Assembly (NCBI GenBank): GCA_032128375.1
Contig: JAQBGU010000135.1
Span: 7,213-71,212, forward strand
Direction: 5' to 3'
DNA: 64,000 nucleotides
DNA from: Deltaproteobacteria bacterium
GTDB taxonomy: Bacteria; Myxococcota_A; UBA9160; SMWR01
Shown here: in pieces, positions 6,102-13,516 of the stretch
How positions within the stretch are numbered: the first letter of the stretch is position 1
Layout: each line of letters begins with the position of its first letter
Position numbers and translations under genes: made by a program
The notes under the pieces: generated by a model
Databases searched by the model: none
What the model saw: only the letters and a program-made list of their open reading frames with translations
What the model was told of the DNA's origin: nothing

Positions 6102-6773
6102 ATGAACTTTTTCGCGCTTGGGACGCTTGTCTTGGGGCTGGCCCCTGCCAGCCCGGCCCGGTCGAGCGACACCGACAGCGACGGAAGCTGCCCCTATCGA
6201 CGTGTGTCGTTGAGTACGCCACAACGTCTTCTAAAGGCACCCGGTGACGGCACTCTACAAGCGGAATTTCTTGGCGTGTTTGGATTTCATCTCGGGCGTG
6301 CCGGCTTCGAGGTGATCGAGCCGACCCAATCGGGGTTCACTTGGGAAATATTCAGCCAGGTGGAACCGCTCGGAGACGGGCGGTTGGCTTGGAGCTATGC
6401 GTTGCTCCCGATGCCTGGCCTGGCGGATGGGGTGATCGAATTTCCCACGTTTTCGGTCGTTGAACGACCCGGTGGCGAGCGTGTGCAGTTCACGACGTAT
6501 CACGGGCTGGAAAGCCTTCGCTCCACCGATTTTCCCCTTCGCGCAGCACTGGCATCAGAGAAGCTCGCAAACTTGTACCTCCCAGTGGCGCTGAAGCTCT
6601 GCGCTGAGCGGGGCTCGATATTGGAGATGGAGGCGGCTCGGCTGGAGCGCATCCGCAGCGAACTCAGCGCCGAAATCGAACGCGTTGCGGCGCGACGCTC
6701 ACGACAGAACAAGCACCTGGAGTTGAAAACCGAGGACGGAATGCAGGACCCGCCCGGGTCAGCGAGCGATTGA
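6102..6773 (+). CDS. hypothetical secreted protein
   Basis: Within ORF 5760..6773, the signal-peptide-like start MNFFALGTLVLGLAPASPA is at ATG 6102. The C-terminus is coiled-coil-like (EMEAARLERIRSELSAEIERVAARR). I recognise no family. Confidence 0.5.
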   Translation: MNFFALGTLVLGLAPASPARSSDTDSDGSCPYRRVSLSTPQRLLKAPGDGTLQAEFLGVFGFHLGRAGFEVIEPTQSGFTWEIFSQVEPLGDGRLAWSYALLPMPGLADGVIEFPTFSVVERPGGERVQFTTYHGLESLRSTDFPLRAALASEKLANLYLPVALKLCAERGSILEMEAARLERIRSELSAEIERVAARRSRQNKHLELKTEDGMQDPPGSASD

Positions 6774-6774
6774 A

Positions 6775-7542
6775 TCAGGCAGCGATTCGATCGGCGGATT
6801 GCTCGGCAGCACTGTCATTGGCGATGCGCACGATACCCAGCGCTGCGAGTGAGCGGATCACGAAGTAGGCGGGGTCGATTTCGAACCAGCGAACGCCGAA
6901 GTTGATCGACATGCCGGCCTTGTGGTGGTTGTTCTGAAAGAGCTCACCAAGAGTGACGAAATCAAAGGGCAGCGAATTGCGCGAGAGGTCGTTTCCCTCG
7001 AAATTTCGATAGCCATACTTGTGGCCGCACCAGTTCACTATGGCTCCGTGGATTGGACCCATCAGGAAATGCGCCGGCAGCAGCAGGAAGTAGATCGCGC
7101 TCGGTGCGAATGCAACATAAAACAGTGTGTAGGCCACGCCGAAGCCGATGCGTACGGGCCAGCGGTTTGCGAGCCGGTCGAGTTCTACCCATTGCGGGTA
7201 GCCGCCATCGAAGCGCGGCTCGGGCTCGATTTCGTGGTGCACGAAATCGGAGTAGCGATTCTTGGTGTTGAGCATCATCGCCACCACATTTGGGAAGAAA
7301 TGTGGAGAATGCGGGTCGCGCTCCGTATCGCTGAATGCGTGGTGTTCGCGGTGCAAGATCGCGTAGCCGCGCGGCTCCAGAAACGATGAGCCCTGGGTCA
7401 ACCAGGTTGCGAAATAGAAAATTCGCTCCCAGCGCCTGCTCATCGTGAACTGCCGATGGGCACCGTATCGGTGCAAGAAGAACGTCTGGAAGAATACTGA
7501 CGAGAGCCAGTGACCGACAAAGAATATGGCAATTGCGAGCAT
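6775..7542 (-). CDS. acyl-CoA/acyl-lipid fatty acid desaturase (membrane di-iron, delta-9-like)
   Basis: Three His boxes are present: HRYGAH, HREHHAFSDTERDPHSP and NNHH. The start is set at MLAIAIFFVGHW (ATG 7542) behind AAGGGAGAG; the tracked 355-aa ORF is over-extended. Confidence 0.85.
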   Translation of the reverse strand: MLAIAIFFVGHWLSSVFFQTFFLHRYGAHRQFTMSRRWERIFYFATWLTQGSSFLEPRGYAILHREHHAFSDTERDPHSPHFFPNVVAMMLNTKNRYSDFVHHEIEPEPRFDGGYPQWVELDRLANRWPVRIGFGVAYTLFYVAFAPSAIYFLLLPAHFLMGPIHGAIVNWCGHKYGYRNFEGNDLSRNSLPFDFVTLGELFQNNHHKAGMSINFGVRWFEIDPAYFVIRSLAALGIVRIANDSAAEQSADRIAA

Positions 7543-7711
7543 CCGCTCTCCCTTGCAGCCTTGGTCACGAGGCCGTGAAGGTTCGAGACCCGTGGCGAGT
7601 CGGTACAAAGCTACCGAGGTCAAGAGCTGGAGTCCGCTGAGTTTCGTAATAGTTGTGTGATACCAATTCGTTGGGAGTTCACGGCTCGCACGCGGGTAGG
7701 ATTCGTCGCCA

Positions 7712-9412
7712 ATGCAGCGGCATATCGAAATCGGATTGATCGGAGTCTGCGGCCTGGCCTGCATGTCGCTCCTATTGAAGAACCTCTCGTATCCCCTGAT
7801 GTGGCAGGACGAGGCCGAGACCGCGGTATTTGCGACCCGCATCCTGGACTACGGATTTCCCAAGGTGCACGGCAGTCGAAATGTGGTTTACGAATTCGGC
7901 TCGAACGTGGCACTTGGAATCGATGAGCGAACTGACGCTTACATTGGAACTACCTGGGGACACTTCTACTTCGCGGTTCCAGGTGTTCTGGCAGCCGCGG
8001 CAACCGACGATCTCTACGCGAAGACATGGCGGATCCGTCTGCCCTTCGCGCTGACCGGTGCACTCGGCATCGGCCTGACGGTGCTCGCGGTGATCCCGGT
8101 CTTTCGGGGTCGCCCCGGCCTGGCCAGGCGATTTGTGATCTATTTCTTGTTGCTCTCGTGCGCATCGATTTCGCTGCTGTTGCATCTTCGCGAGGCACGC
8201 TACTACGCGTTGTTGATTCTGCTGGTGGCTGCGATCGGCTGGGTTCACCTGCGCCATGTCGTGTTCGAAACGCTCAGCTACCGCCGATATGCGATCGCCC
8301 TCACGGGGCTGATGGTCCTGCTGTTCAACGTGTTCTACTCAGCGTTCTTCATGATTGGCCTGATACTGGCAATCGAAGCGCTGTGGCGGGAACGCCGCTC
8401 TTGCATCATGAGCCCCCCCCAGATCGGCTCGGGTGCGGCTCGGCGAATCGCGACGTCACTCGCGCCGCTGGCAGCCGCCGGGGTCTGCGTAATACCGCTG
8501 TTGGTCTACTTCGAGACGTTTCCGATCGCGGCCGAATTTTCGAAGCACGTTGGGTTCAGCGCGGCCGTATACCTGGCGAATAGTGAGAACCTCGTTTTCC
8601 ATCTGTTGCGACACGAACTGCTGGCGGTCGTAGTGTTATGCCGTGTAGCGGTTCTGGCCGCCGATCGGGTTTTGGGGGAGCCTCTCGAGCGCTGGGAAGC
8701 ACAGAGCCGTCGAGTCGCCTCGCAGATCGTTGGGTTTGCGCTGGGATATTCGCTGCTCAGTTGCCTCAATCCACTGGTATACGAGCGCTACTACATCGTG
8801 TTGAGCCCCCTGTTGACAGTGGTATTCGTTCTCGATGCGATGTGCCTCAGCGCGCGGGCGAGGGCACACGACCGATCCCGGGGCGGGTGGGTCAACGTGT
8901 TTGCAGTCGCGACGATCCTCGCGTTGACCACAGTGACGGGAACCACGCGAATCCAGGACGTGCGCGGCCGGTTGCGCGAGATTTCGGAGCCCTATCTCGG
9001 CCCGTTGGACTACGTGATCCCGTGGATCCGCGAACAATATCCACATCCGGAGGCGCTCGTGATCGCGACAAACTACGAGAATCATCCCTACATGTACTAC
9101 CTGGGCAGCCACACGATCGTAGGCCTCAGCCGCAATAACATCCGCCGGGACAGGCTGCTCGAGCCGGACCTGGTGGTGCCGCGTCGTCGCTGGCGCGCTT
9201 CGTTGCGAGACGCCATGGCCTTCGTTGAGCGTCGGCGTGGCGAATATCGCTCCGAAGTGTTCGAAGTGCGCGATCTGCACTACAACAATGTGCCGGCGCT
9301 CTCGAGATCGATGTCGACTCCCGATCCGCACCGGTTCGTGACGGCGCTTGCGGACCGCGACGAGCAGAGGCTCGAGGTCTATGTACGAGTCGAGCCGGAG
9401 GCGACGCCCTGA
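7712..9412 (+). CDS. polytopic membrane glycosyltransferase, GT-C fold (ArnT/PMT, GT39/83-like)
   Basis: 566 aa with many predicted TM helices. An early loop has YPLMWQDEAETAVFATRI (the family-typical DE motif), followed by a WRIRLPFALTGALGIGLTVLAV-type helix. Confidence 0.6.
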   Translation: MQRHIEIGLIGVCGLACMSLLLKNLSYPLMWQDEAETAVFATRILDYGFPKVHGSRNVVYEFGSNVALGIDERTDAYIGTTWGHFYFAVPGVLAAAATDDLYAKTWRIRLPFALTGALGIGLTVLAVIPVFRGRPGLARRFVIYFLLLSCASISLLLHLREARYYALLILLVAAIGWVHLRHVVFETLSYRRYAIALTGLMVLLFNVFYSAFFMIGLILAIEALWRERRSCIMSPPQIGSGAARRIATSLAPLAAAGVCVIPLLVYFETFPIAAEFSKHVGFSAAVYLANSENLVFHLLRHELLAVVVLCRVAVLAADRVLGEPLERWEAQSRRVASQIVGFALGYSLLSCLNPLVYERYYIVLSPLLTVVFVLDAMCLSARARAHDRSRGGWVNVFAVATILALTTVTGTTRIQDVRGRLREISEPYLGPLDYVIPWIREQYPHPEALVIATNYENHPYMYYLGSHTIVGLSRNNIRRDRLLEPDLVVPRRRWRASLRDAMAFVERRRGEYRSEVFEVRDLHYNNVPALSRSMSTPDPHRFVTALADRDEQRLEVYVRVEPEATP

Positions 9413-9523
9413 TGGGTCGACTCAGGGCATCGCAGGAAGCGACCGGAGCGGAAGGTTGTGGGCATTCGGCCGGGAGAAACGATTAGACTCGGGCCGAGCG
9501 GGGCAGAGCATGGGTGAGCGAGC

Positions 9524-10351
9524 ATGAAGTCGGTGTCTCGAGACAACCAGACGATTCGCGATTTCGGTGAACAATGGTCGCACTACGGCGACAACGAGGG
9601 TTTTTACGGCTCCGTCGAACTGCTCGCAGACATGCTGGGGCCGCTGGTTTCATTCGATGATCTGCGCGGGGCACGAGTCGCAGACATCGGCAGCGGTACC
9701 GGCAGGATCGTTCGAATGTTGCTCGACGCTGGTGTCGAGAGCGTGGTGGCAATCGAGCCTTCCGTGGGGGTCGAGATCCTTCGTGAGAATCTCCGCGAGT
9801 TCGGCGATCGCGTCGAGGTGATCCACGGCACCGGCGACGAGTTGCCGGCCGATCGCGAGCTGGATTTCGCGATTTCGATCGGTGTAATCCAGTTCATCCG
9901 AGATCCGCAACCCACGTTGCGAGCCGCACTCGGCGCGCTGCGACCCGGAGGCAAAGTCGTCATCTGGGTCTATGGCCACGAGGGCAATACTGCATATGTG
10001 CTCGCGTTGACTGCGCTGCGCTCGATCACGACGCGGCTGCCGCACTGGGCGCTAGCGGGGGTCTGTCAGCTCATGACAGGCTTCGTCGACGCGTACATCG
10101 CGTTATGCAGACTCACTGGGCTCCCGTTGCCATTGCACAACTACCTGGTCAACACATTGGCGCGTGTGACGCGGCGTGAGCGAACGCTGACGATCTACGA
10201 CCAGCTCAATCCCAGCTATGCGAAGTATTACCGTCGCAACGAGGTCGCTGAGATGCTCGAGAGAGCGGGTTTTGTTGACGTCCAGCTCCATCATCGACGC
10301 GAATACAGCTGGACGGCCATTGGCACCAGGCCCGAGCCGCGAAAATCGTGA
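9524..10351 (+). CDS. class I SAM-dependent methyltransferase
   Basis: Motif I VADIGSGTGRIVRMLLDAG is followed by a post-I acidic residue and GGKVVIWVY. Confidence 0.8.
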   Translation: MKSVSRDNQTIRDFGEQWSHYGDNEGFYGSVELLADMLGPLVSFDDLRGARVADIGSGTGRIVRMLLDAGVESVVAIEPSVGVEILRENLREFGDRVEVIHGTGDELPADRELDFAISIGVIQFIRDPQPTLRAALGALRPGGKVVIWVYGHEGNTAYVLALTALRSITTRLPHWALAGVCQLMTGFVDAYIALCRLTGLPLPLHNYLVNTLARVTRRERTLTIYDQLNPSYAKYYRRNEVAEMLERAGFVDVQLHHRREYSWTAIGTRPEPRKS

Positions 10352-10427
10352 GGTTTCTTCCGTGTCGTCGCCTGCACGATGAAGCGCGAGGCTGTCTGGC
10401 CCCTCCCCACGCGAAATTGAGCTAGAT

Positions 10428-11399
10428 TTGAAACCGTTGGTGCCGAAAACACGCCCTGACAACCCCCTCGTTTCGATTGTCGTGCCCGTTCTCAACGAGG
10501 AGGGCTGCGTCGGCGAACTCGCACGCCGTGTCGCGGCGGCTCTGGCGACTGCGAACACCCGTTACGAATTGCTTTTTGTCGACGACGGCAGCCGGGACGG
10601 CACGGCAGCGGCGATCGCCGACCTCCGCAGATCGGACCCCAGCGTGAAGACGATTCGTTTCACCAGGAGCTTCGGCCATCAGGCCGCGCTGGCTGCCGGG
10701 TTCAAACACGCAGCTGGTGATGCGGTCGTTATCATGGACGGTGACCTGCAGCATCCACCCGAGTTCATTCCCACGCTGATCAGCGCCTGGCTCGAGGGGA
10801 TCGACGTGGTCAGCACGATCCGTCGATCGCCCGCCGATTCGCGCTTGGATTCCAAGGAGCTTCTCGGGCGCGCCTTCTACCGGGTCATGTCCGCACTGAC
10901 GCCGATTTCCATCACGCCGGCCGCGGCTGACTTCCGCCTATTGGACCGTCGCGTCGTCGACGCGTTCAATGGGCTCGAGGAGCGCTTCATTTTCGCGCGC
11001 GGCCTGATCCCGTGGCTGGGTTTCGAAGAGGTCTATTTCGACTACGCGGTAGGCGATCGTTTTGCCGGCCGCAGCAAGTATCGGTTCTGGTCGATGCTTC
11101 GGCTGGCGCTCGATGGGATCTTCTCGTTTTCGGTAGTACCGCTGCGGCTGATCTCGTTGCTGGGTTTCGGGACCACATTGTTTGGGATCGGGTTCGGGAT
11201 CTTTTCCGTGTTTTCGTACCTGGCGGGCAACGTCGACGGTACGGGATGGACGACACTCGTCGTGCTGATCCTGACTTTTGGCGGGATCCAGATGCTCTCG
11301 ATCGGGATCGTCAGCGAATACATCGGCCGGACCTATGAGGAAGTGAAACGCCGTCCGCGCTACGTGATCGACTCTACGGCTGGGCTCGATCGACGGTGA
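10428..11399 (+). CDS. GT2 polyprenyl-phosphate glycosyltransferase (GtrB/ArnC/CsbB-like)
   Basis: VSIVVPVLNEE ... LLFVDDGSRDGT ... VIMDGDLQHPPEFIP, plus two C-terminal TM helices and EYIGRTYEEVKRRPRY. It has a TTG start, and its stop overlaps the next gene's GTG (GTGA at 11396..11399). Confidence 0.9.
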   Translation: MKPLVPKTRPDNPLVSIVVPVLNEEGCVGELARRVAAALATANTRYELLFVDDGSRDGTAAAIADLRRSDPSVKTIRFTRSFGHQAALAAGFKHAAGDAVVIMDGDLQHPPEFIPTLISAWLEGIDVVSTIRRSPADSRLDSKELLGRAFYRVMSALTPISITPAAADFRLLDRRVVDAFNGLEERFIFARGLIPWLGFEEVYFDYAVGDRFAGRSKYRFWSMLRLALDGIFSFSVVPLRLISLLGFGTTLFGIGFGIFSVFSYLAGNVDGTGWTTLVVLILTFGGIQMLSIGIVSEYIGRTYEEVKRRPRYVIDSTAGLDRR

Positions 11400-13516
11400 G
11401 CCGTTGGACGGTCGCGACCGCGATCGCCACGGCGCTGCTGTGGATCTCGCTGGGGACCCAGGCGTCACTGCCGACGCTGACCCGCGGCGCCGAGGATTGG
11501 TCTGGTGACTTCCGCTCCTACTACCTGCCCAACGCCGAGTTCGCGGCGAACCAGCTAGCGGAAGGACGCCTTCCGTTGTGGAATCCGTACCAGGGCGCGG
11601 GTGGGCCGTTCCTGGCGACGATCCAGCCGGGCGTCTTCTACCCGCCCAACTGGCTTCATCTGCTGCTGCCGTCTGCAACGGCATTCCTTGTGTTGATCGC
11701 ACTGCACCTGGCACTCGCGGTCGTGACCGCGAGCGCTCTTGCGCAACGCCTGGGCGCGTCGCCGATCGGTGGAGCAGTAGCGGGGCTGGCCTACGCGACA
11801 TCGTTTCAGCTGATTGGCAGCGTATGGACCCCACCGCTGGTTTACACTGCGTCGTGGATGCCGGCGGTGTTATTCGCTGTTGATCGGATCATCGATCGAC
11901 CCTCAGCGAAGTCGACGGCGCTGCTTGCGGCAGTGACCGCGCTTCCCGCGCTCGCGGGCTGGCCGTATACTCTGATGCTGACAGCACTGACCTGCGCGAT
12001 GTATGCAGCCACTCGCATGCTGATGGGGCTGGTGCGCGCGCGAGCGATTCCGTGGCGCGTGGGTGTTGCGCTTTCGGCCGGGGCGGCGATCGGCCTGCTG
12101 TTGGCGGCGCCGCAGTTGTACCCGGCATCGGAGTTGCTGGGGCGCAGTTGTCGCGCGTTGGGCTCGATCATCGAGGAGCAGGCCATCTTCGTGCCGGGTC
12201 CGCACGATCCGGAGATATTCATGAGAAGTATTCTCAGAAGCGGATTCAACGATGGCGTTCCGGGTTACGCGGCCTTGCTGCTTTCGCCCCTGGCGCTGTT
12301 GCTGCCGGGTCCACATCGGGGTCGCGTCGCGCTGCTGCTCGCCATCGGGGGCTTCGGGTTGCTCGCATCCTTCCCCGGCTCGGTTCCAGTCTACGGCTGG
12401 TTGCGGGAACTGCCCATTCTCGCTGATTTTCGATTTCCGTACCGGTACCGGCTGCTGTCGACGCTGGCACTCTCGATCGCCGCCGGCGTTGGCGCATCTC
12501 ACCTCCAGTACGCATTGCGCCGCTACTCACACGCTGGTTCCGCTGCTGGGGTAGTGGCGCTGATGGCTGCACTGGGATGGGGCAGCCTCCCGGTGCTGAA
12601 CACGGCAAGTCGCTTTGCGCGCGATTTCGGTCCGTCTCAATCGGTGGCCGAGCAGATCGCACAGATCGGTGCGGATTGGAAACCCGAGCCGTACGAGCGT
12701 GTCTACTGGACCGGTCGATCCCACAAGCTCCGCGATCCGAGCAACGTGTTCGTTGTCCACGACATGGAGCCGTTGACATTGGCGCGAACCGCACAATTGT
12801 TGACGTTCTTCGAAACCGGACGAGCCAGGACACTCCTCACGCTGAAGCCATCCAGCGATCCTCGCAAGAAGTACGAGGATTGGGTGGCAGCCCCGTTCTT
12901 CGGTTGGCTGAACCTTCCCGGTGACAGTGCACGGGCTGCGATCCTCGACGTGTTCTCGATCGGAACGATTGTCGACCGCGCGCCGCCGTATTGGCTGACC
13001 GACCGCTACGAGCGGATCTCGCCTGCCGGTGCCGAGTCGTCGGTCTTCCGCAACCCTCACGCGCTGCCCCGCGCGTACCGGGTCGCAGTTGCCATTGCGG
13101 AGCCGGCGAAGTTGGCGGACGCGTTGCGCCTGATGACATCGGAGCGTTTCAATCCACGCTCGATGGTGCTGTTGGACAACCCGCCCGCCCGGCTCTTGAC
13201 ACGCCGCCGCCCCGTGCCGTTCGACCCGAGCGGCGTCGAAATCGAACGCTATCTCCCAGATCGGGTCCGGCTGCAGACACGCGGCGCGACGGCGGCGATC
13301 GTCGTGCTGACCGACGCGCACTTCCCAGGCTGGACGGCGAGCTTGGATGGACAGCCGGTCGAGTTGTATCGGGCGAACGCGAATTTTCGCGGTGTTGCGG
13401 TCCCCGCCGGCGAACATGTGGTCGAGATGTACTACGCACCGCAATCATTGGCGTTCGGCAGCTGGCTGGCGGCGTTGGGCGCGCTTGGGATCGCGGTCGC
13501 GGTGTGGCGAAATTGA
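11396..13516 (+). CDS. YfhO-family membrane protein (GT-C-type glycosyltransferase)
   Basis: 706 aa and polytopic. The N-terminal region LAEGRLPLWNPYQGAGGPFLATIQPGVFYPPNWL is the YfhO-type signature as I know it. It is translationally coupled to the GT2 gene. Confidence 0.7.
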   Translation: MSRWTVATAIATALLWISLGTQASLPTLTRGAEDWSGDFRSYYLPNAEFAANQLAEGRLPLWNPYQGAGGPFLATIQPGVFYPPNWLHLLLPSATAFLVLIALHLALAVVTASALAQRLGASPIGGAVAGLAYATSFQLIGSVWTPPLVYTASWMPAVLFAVDRIIDRPSAKSTALLAAVTALPALAGWPYTLMLTALTCAMYAATRMLMGLVRARAIPWRVGVALSAGAAIGLLLAAPQLYPASELLGRSCRALGSIIEEQAIFVPGPHDPEIFMRSILRSGFNDGVPGYAALLLSPLALLLPGPHRGRVALLLAIGGFGLLASFPGSVPVYGWLRELPILADFRFPYRYRLLSTLALSIAAGVGASHLQYALRRYSHAGSAAGVVALMAALGWGSLPVLNTASRFARDFGPSQSVAEQIAQIGADWKPEPYERVYWTGRSHKLRDPSNVFVVHDMEPLTLARTAQLLTFFETGRARTLLTLKPSSDPRKKYEDWVAAPFFGWLNLPGDSARAAILDVFSIGTIVDRAPPYWLTDRYERISPAGAESSVFRNPHALPRAYRVAVAIAEPAKLADALRLMTSERFNPRSMVLLDNPPARLLTRRRPVPFDPSGVEIERYLPDRVRLQTRGATAAIVVLTDAHFPGWTASLDGQPVELYRANANFRGVAVPAGEHVVEMYYAPQSLAFGSWLAALGALGIAVAVWRN

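Follow-up and report, generated by a model that had tools for sequence, protein, structure and literature searches.

A methyltransferase, a GtrB-type glycosyltransferase and two unrelated proteins of GT-C fold in a putative envelope glycosylation cluster of an uncultured member of the Myxococcota

We analyzed a 64-kb window of DNA (64,000 nucleotides; positions 7,213 to 71,212 of contig JAQBGU010000135.1, assembly GCA_032128375.1) from the metagenome-assembled genome (MAG) of an uncultured bacterium of the Myxococcota_A lineage. Four co-directional genes lie at 7712-13516 of this window (Table 1), and a first-pass annotation, made from the letters alone, had described them as a module for envelope glycosylation. 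Here we call the first gene for a GT-C glycosyltransferase g1, the methyltransferase (MT) gene g2, the gene of the family 2 glycosyltransferase (GT2) g3 and the YfhO gene g4. The open reading frames (ORFs) are found where that annotation had placed them, and the same four genes are called independently on the MAG contig JAQBGZ010000099 (GCA_032128195.1) and on two Logan contigs. The cluster most likely decorates an envelope molecule outside the cytoplasm and would be a variant of the known multi-component systems of transmembrane glycosylation, the only fresh element being the so far unannotated enzyme family of g1.

Table 1. Position of the four genes and of neighboring features in the window.
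Feature	Position	Strand	Length and start	Description
g1	7712-9412	+	566 aa	Polytopic membrane protein, predicted GT-C fold
g2	9524-10351	+	275 aa	Class I S-adenosylmethionine (SAM)-dependent methyltransferase
g3	10428-11399	+	323 aa, TTG start	Predicted GtrB/CsbB/ArnC-type GT2
g4	11396-13516	+	706 aa, GTG start	YfhO-family GT-C glycosyltransferase
GTGA overlap	11396-11399	+		g3 stop and g4 start, read from sequence
Upstream gene	6102-6773	+	223 aa	Protein without family match, secreted-looking; upstream of g1
Upstream gene	6775-7542	-	255 aa	Membrane protein, weak DesA-like desaturase (NCBIfam 7e-34, below cut-off)

Inspection of the sequence around the junction of g3 and g4 (tcgacGGTGA, 11390-11399) confirmed that the GTG start codon of g4 at 11396-98 overlaps the TGA stop codon of g3 at 11397-99, and this overlap suggests that the translation of the two genes may be coupled. 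The gaps between g1 and g2 and between g2 and g3 are 111 bp and 76 bp, respectively. Both gaps are free of terminator-like sites, the frequency of which in the region was not above that of shuffled sequence, and a promoter scan did not find the sigma-70 consensus. No second copy of g1, g2, g3 or g4 was found elsewhere within the window.

Among the four proteins, g3 is the one most readily compared with characterized enzymes. The PF00535 model matches residues 16-177 (4e-29), corresponding to the N-terminal GT-A (GT2) domain, and hydrophobic segments are located toward the C-terminus at 226-265 and 277-295. End-to-end alignments were obtained with GtrB sll0501 (PDB 5EKP; E = 1.8e-74, residues 15-321, 254 bits) and with ArnC in the PDB (E of about 1e-47, residues 15-315, 165 bits), and full-length matches in NCBIfam were PgfS (5e-80), which was the best one, and ArnC (1.4e-51). 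The sugar specificity cannot be assigned from these matches, because the scores fall under the equivalog cut-offs of both models (268.9 against 500 bits for PgfS, and 175.4 against 529 bits for ArnC). By its sequence, g3 is predicted to be a full-length polyprenyl-phosphate glycosyltransferase of the GtrB/CsbB/ArnC type, as had been proposed in the first-pass annotation.

The assignment of g4 to the YfhO type also held. PF09586 (YfhO) scores 43.0 bits against a threshold of 28.5 at residues 638-689 (positions 781-832 of the 835 in the profile), and of the 120 listed homologues of g4, almost all carry the same model. The AlphaFold model calculated from 52 sequences had a pLDDT of 92.3, and the Foldseek search of this model against the PDB returned only GT-C enzymes, namely AftD (2e-7), STT3, PglB, AftA and DPY19, at probability 1.0, and Emb. 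Up to about residue 403 the protein is a membrane domain; a beta-rich domain outside the cytoplasm follows (about 404-680), and the chain ends in a transmembrane (TM) anchor (683-705). The acidic residue at D38 in the first loop is invariant in the 52 sequences. Adjacency of GT2 and YfhO genes was also found in the fetched loci (designated by L numbers) L004, L007, L008, L010-L014, L170, L090 and L094. A scan of metagenomes with the YfhO profile gave mostly distant YfhO genes without adjacent GtrB or methyltransferase genes and was uninformative for the subfamily of g4.

The g2 protein scores above the Pfam thresholds of Methyltransf_11, 23, 25 and 12, carries a SAM-binding motif of the GxGxG type (DIGSGTG, residues 54-60) and is apparently soluble, having no convincing TM segment, all of which agrees with the methyltransferase called in the first-pass annotation. 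Homologue searches returned only the generic name, class I SAM-dependent methyltransferase. A methyltransferase gene is located directly upstream of the GT2 gene in every locus with the cassette, and the identity of its relatives to g2 (55-87%) indicates that the methyltransferase is more conserved than the two GT-C proteins (45-83%). A second and different SAM methyltransferase gene was observed between the GT2 and YfhO genes in L008 (7147-8004), L170 (7207-8004) and the place designated P0192; its stop codon overlaps the start of YfhO, and it was not detected by phmmer with g2.

In the case of g1, neither Pfam nor NCBIfam nor the PDB sequences gave a match even at E = 10 (phmmer against all PDB chains for the last), none of 30 diverse relatives matched any GT-C family of Pfam at E ≤ 0.1, and its homologues all bear the name hypothetical protein and lack precomputed Pfam domains. 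The AlphaFold model (56 sequences) was of high confidence, with a pLDDT of 91.3 and a pTM of 0.92, and the top 15 Foldseek matches in the PDB were all GT-C proteins with probability 1.0 and E values from 3e-6 to 3e-2. The TM scores of these alignments ranged from 0.29 to 0.52 (0.41-0.52 for the first 14), and the identity in the structural alignments was 10-16%. The matches included human and yeast STT3 (3e-6), ArnT (5F15, 1e-5), AglB, ALG9, Pmt4, PglB and AftB, and were spread alike over GT66, GT83, GT22, GT39 and GT89. Because no sequence model matches g1 or its relatives, we claim it as GT-C by fold only; in its predicted structure it is a GT-C enzyme, and neither GT39 nor GT83 can be given as its family. 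The first-pass annotation had called it a GT39/83-like GT-C protein, of which the fold was borne out and the family membership was not: GT39 (PMT, PF02366), PMT_2 (PF13231) and GT83 (ArnT) were each considered and rejected, as no model of these families recognizes g1 or its relatives.

Conserved residues of g1 are consistent with this fold. The catalytic acidic residues of GT-C enzymes follow TM1, in the first loop outside the cytoplasm. The prediction for g1 gives 10 or more hydrophobic segments, and just past the first of them lies W31-x-D33-E34, whose W31, D33 and E34 do not vary among 56 close relatives and 30 distant ones; this motif sits where the catalytic acidic residues of GT-C enzymes sit and is predicted to have the same role. 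The fold and a first-loop acidic motif are shared with GT66 (STT3/PglB/AglB), GT83 (ArnT), GT39 (PMT) and GT22 (ALG9), whereas g1 differs from these families, whose sequence models miss it, in having motifs of its own, the invariant LHLRE(A/V)RYY at residues 157-165 and ATNYE, and a distinct, conserved C-terminal alpha/beta domain (about 430-560). Alignment by hhalign with the cluster of PMT_2-type neighbors was not significant (probability 12%, E = 0.0025), and in this weak alignment WQDEAET of g1 was in register with RDEGEYA of the PMT_2 type, which is no more than suggestive. The corresponding probability for g1 and g4 was 0.2%, indicating that the two are not paralogues, and the two GT-C proteins are thus unrelated in sequence, as the first-pass annotation had said. 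By structure prediction, both large membrane proteins of the cluster have GT-C folds.

The g1 family comprises 1,429 clusters at 50% identity when collected at E ≤ 1e-3, and 346 at E ≤ 1e-30. Relatives occur in at least 352 species-representative genomes, all of which are MAGs or single-amplified genomes, from Myxococcota, Patescibacteria, Omnitrophota, Saganbacteria, Margulisbacteria, Bacteroidota and Nitrospirota.

We determined the gene order in every fetched locus, using profiles for g1 and g4 and phmmer for g2 and g3. The order g1-MT-GT2-YfhO is seen in the window (L001), in L004 (57% identity) and in L010-L014 (75-49%). In L170, a methyltransferase gene is inserted before YfhO, giving g1-MT-GT2-MT-YfhO, and in L007 the order is MT-GT2-YfhO-g1, the g1 gene being 48% identical (E = 1e-141). 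The linkage of g1 with the cassette was therefore found in 9 distinct loci and in three gene orders, and stop and start codons overlap by 4 bp at the junction of g1 with the methyltransferase gene in L004 and at that of YfhO with g1 in L007. In a neighbor-joining tree of g1, seven of the linked genes form one clade, and those of L170 and L007 stand on other branches, making three in all. The order MT-GT2-MT-YfhO without g1 is found in L008 and the P0192 place, and L009 and L171 have YfhO without this GT2 or methyltransferase. Unannotated genes next to YfhO in L009 (583 aa), L008 (523 aa) and L171 (491 aa) were tried as candidate relatives of g1, and none of them was related. These results indicate that MT-GT2-YfhO is a stable core and g1 a frequent and dispensable partner of it. 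The four genes do occur together in other genomes, though in a minority of the loci of g1, and neither of the two results that the first-pass annotation had named as refuting it was obtained.

Transmembrane glycosylation by several components, a GT2, a flippase and a GT-C enzyme, has been characterized mainly in Firmicutes and enterobacteria. The targets are teichoic acids, rhamnose polysaccharides and Ser/Thr-rich proteins in the former, and O-antigen and lipid A modification in the latter. It had been assumed in the first-pass annotation that each GT2 of such systems has a single GT-C protein as its partner, and this is contradicted by two published cases. In the Pgf operon of Streptococcus mutans (pgfS-pgfM1-pgfE-pgfM2), the genes of PgfS, a GT-A enzyme, and of the epimerase PgfE are accompanied by those of two GT-C proteins of the YfhO type, PgfM1 and PgfM2 (10.1101/2022.10.10.511621; PMC11092751), and in Listeria 4b, GttA feeds both GttB for wall teichoic acid and GtlB for lipoteichoic acid (PMC8035078), which is a precedent for one GT2 serving two GT-C proteins with different acceptors (PMC8035078, PMC5836110). 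Since two GT-C enzymes supplied by a single synthase have been described before, the present cluster does not change any concept.

The Pgf operon is nevertheless the closest in composition, as both clusters combine a single GtrB-type GT2 with a cytoplasmic enzyme that modifies the sugar and with a pair of GT-C proteins, at least one of them of the YfhO type, and the Pgf transferases act extracytoplasmically, with an undecaprenyl-phosphate (Und-P)-linked sugar as donor (10.1101/2022.10.10.511621; PMC11092751), as we propose here. The modifier is a SAM methyltransferase here and a GalE-type epimerase in Pgf, and the GT-C pair consists of a YfhO protein and a member of an unmodelled family here, in contrast to the paralogues PgfM1 and PgfM2. 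In addition, the present host is Gram-negative, and the cluster has no adjacent genes for Ser/Thr-rich adhesins. The g3 and g4 genes are not Pgf orthologues, because they fall far short of the equivalog cut-offs (g3 with 269 bits where 500 are required, and g4 with 16 where 1400 are required), so the cluster can be said to have a Pgf-type architecture by analogy, not by orthology. The CsbB/YfhO/GtcA systems of Bacillus subtilis, Staphylococcus aureus and Listeria similarly have a GtrB-type GT2 adjoining a YfhO GT-C (PMC8035078, PMC5836110). These and GttA/GttB/GtlB act on teichoic acids, which would not be expected in Myxococcota, and, unlike the present cluster, they are without a methyltransferase. 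The systems of Gram-negative bacteria for O-antigen glucosylation (Gtr, with GtrA/GtrB/GtrC) and for lipid A modification (ArnC/ArnT) likewise combine an Und-P-sugar synthase with a GT-C enzyme facing the periplasm, whereas the present locus lacks GtrA, is not in a phage context, contains none of the genes of the 4-amino-4-deoxy-L-arabinose pathway, and has two GT-C partners of other families. No relevant publication came up when the literature was searched for the combination of YfhO and a methyltransferase in Gram-negative bacteria.

We propose glycosylation on the periplasmic side by way of a lipid carrier, with g3 providing the donor, g4 acting as the transferase, g2 methylating the sugar and g1 serving as a second transferase on the same donor; we assign this scheme a probability of roughly 0.6. 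The g3 enzyme would form an Und-P-sugar on the cytoplasmic face of the inner membrane, a flippase encoded outside the cluster would carry the lipid-linked sugar across it, and g4, working from the periplasm, would attach the sugar to an acceptor in the envelope. Methylation by g2 would most likely precede export and act on the nucleotide sugar or the Und-P-sugar. The g1 enzyme may be an accessory second transferase, most likely drawing on the same lipid-linked donor, and would either have another acceptor or attach a further residue, in the way that PgfM1 and PgfM2 work with PgfS. Because teichoic acids are, to our knowledge, not expected in Myxococcota, the acceptor would probably be a protein of the periplasm or the outer membrane, lipopolysaccharide (LPS) or exopolysaccharide. 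Of this scheme, the data show the folds, the families, the layout of the genes and the recurrence of the set, and the donor sugar, the target of methylation, the acceptor and the use of a common donor by g1 are inferred.

Several observations weigh against this scheme, and some of them concern its central enzymes and the locus as a whole. The PF09586 match in g4 consists of 52 C-terminal residues only, and g2 gave weak and generic methyltransferase matches in NCBIfam and the PDB, with no diagnostic similarity to sugar methyltransferases. No small flippase of the GtrA/GtcA type is present between or beside the four genes, whose flanking genes are unrelated; such flippases are often encoded elsewhere, as in Bacillus subtilis, where GtcA is BSU38210 and CsbB BSU08600 (PMC8035078). 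No sequence feature naming the sugar or the acceptor was found at the locus, and the organism is known as an uncultured MAG.

The other observations against the scheme concern the place of g1. Besides the cassettes without g1 in L008 and the P0192 place, we examined the close relatives of g1 (clade A), counting a gene as unlinked when the cassette was missing within 4.5 kb on both sides. In the 21 species genomes with a clade-A gene, 5 were linked, 11 were unlinked and 5 had flanks too short for the decision, and none of 59 more distant relatives in species genomes was linked to the cassette. Unlinked clade-A genes have the same right flank as g1 of the window (glyoxalase, aldo-keto reductase, MiaE and DLH), and because they keep the same neighborhood, part of the adjacency of g1 and the cassette could be inherited position. 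In view of this, the statement of the first-pass annotation that two GT-C enzymes share one synthase was too strong, since MT-GT2-YfhO is the stable unit and g1 stands apart from it in most loci of its own family; the sharing of the donor is an inference.

These data leave room for a reading in which only MT-GT2-YfhO is a functional unit, and in which g1 works independently of it as a GT-C enzyme, has a donor and an acceptor of its own and is a neighbor by descent, at a chromosomal position that has been conserved. The cassette is missing in 49 of the 51 species genomes having a g1 relative and adequate flanks, and it also exists without g1. In L005 and L006, a lone g1 is located between genes for inositol-1-phosphate synthase and TonB/TonB-dependent receptor, with the right flank as in the window. 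As 7 of the 9 linked g1 genes fall in one clade, a single ancestral juxtaposition could account for those seven, and the 111-bp gap separating g1 from g2 in the window points in the same direction. This must be set against the spread of the linkage, which shows three gene orders, falls on three branches of the g1 tree and has the 4-bp overlaps of L007 and L004, against the lack of a terminator-like site after g1 in the window, and against the presence of an adjacent GT2, an obvious source of the lipid-linked donor that a GT-C enzyme needs. We regard an independent g1 as the main rival of the proposed scheme and, on balance, as rather unlikely.

Modification of lipid A or the LPS core in the manner of ArnC/ArnT, with g1 or g4 moving a modified sugar to lipid A and thereby affecting charge or resistance, would fit the full-length alignment of g3 with ArnC, the rank of ArnT as the second-best fold match of g1 and the Gram-negative host. 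However, g3 resembles GtrB and PgfS far more than it does ArnC (254 versus 165 bits with the PDB sequences of GtrB and ArnC), and its score with the ArnC equivalog is 175 against 529 bits. Homologues of ArnA, ArnB, ArnD, ArnE and ArnF are not found in the cluster, and g1 is not matched by the ArnT or PMT_2 models, its fold matches with STT3, AglB and ALG9 being as good as that with ArnT. Such a function therefore appears very unlikely. That the four genes are unrelated and adjacent by chance, or an annotation artefact, with no functional meaning, is scarcely credible and effectively refuted by the conservation data, that is, by long ORFs with 45-87% identity across many metagenomes, confident folds and the recurrence of the set in 9 loci with overlapping stop and start codons.

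If the proposed scheme of carrier-linked glycosylation is correct, the conserved MT-GtrB-YfhO cassette with an optional second GT-C protein would represent an unstudied decoration of the envelope in abundant uncultured marine Myxococcota. A more far-reaching and tentative proposal, which we rate as rather unlikely as a whole, is that g1 founds an unrecognized GT-C family (about 350-1,400 clusters) that was recruited in one lineage of Myxococcota and, together with the cassette, builds a methylated extracytoplasmic glycan in two steps. If this were true, it might amount, for example, to periplasmic O-glycosylation of proteins in a Gram-negative bacterium, and would extend the YfhO-type systems beyond the cell-wall polymers of Firmicutes. 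The genomic link to a lipid-sugar synthase would be the first functional handle on a GT-C family that is missed by the libraries of hidden Markov models. The practical value lies mostly in annotation, g1 being a candidate for a new Pfam or CAZy family.

The neighborhoods of g1 relatives away from the cassette are also of a recurrent kind. Directly upstream of unlinked clade-A genes, a divergent gene for myo-inositol-1-phosphate synthase is found in 9 loci (L005:6749-9650, L006:6771-9683, L017:8687-11617 and 6 more), and genes for TonB and a TonB-dependent receptor are located downstream. This neighborhood may point to a substrate that contains inositol, either a lipid or a glycan. In a distant clade from other Myxococcota, a convergent GT2 gene, a sulfatase, a second GT2 and an oxidoreductase of the GFO/IDH/MocA type stand beside g1 (L044:10001-17537 and about 20 similar loci, such as L035, L065, L082, L060 and L066), the sulfatase being PF00884 with SGSH_C in 21 loci. 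Clusters with several GT-C genes occur in Patescibacteria of the Candidate Phyla Radiation and in Saganbacteria (L062:5019-8214, L087:1969-9949 and L038:1779-11668), where the g1 relatives adjoin a PMT_2-type GT-C gene (11 loci) or YfhO (L087 and L038). The glycan-related genes beside the distant relatives fit a role of the g1 family as glycosyltransferases.

Tandem arrays of YfhO genes were encountered in L158:3344-21018 (Ga0209201_1000411), with seven consecutive ORFs on the same strand, in L139, with five or six, and in L098, with four; no adjacent GtrB-type GT2 was detected in these three loci. Tandem duplicates or fragments of genes of the g1 family were seen in L041, L049, L050, L057, L073 and L085.

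Upstream of g1 in the window, an ORF at 6775-7842 on the minus strand overlaps the start of g1, and was rejected as over-extended because the called gene stops at 7542. This gene and the one preceding it, at 6102-6773, are kept beside g1 in L004 and not in L170. Finally, some MAGs with close relatives of g1 or the cassette (L011, L013 and L017-L019) are titled Opitutales, Gammaproteobacteria or Spirochaetales, although their sequences group with Myxococcota, and these discordant titles are probably due to noise in binning or labelling.

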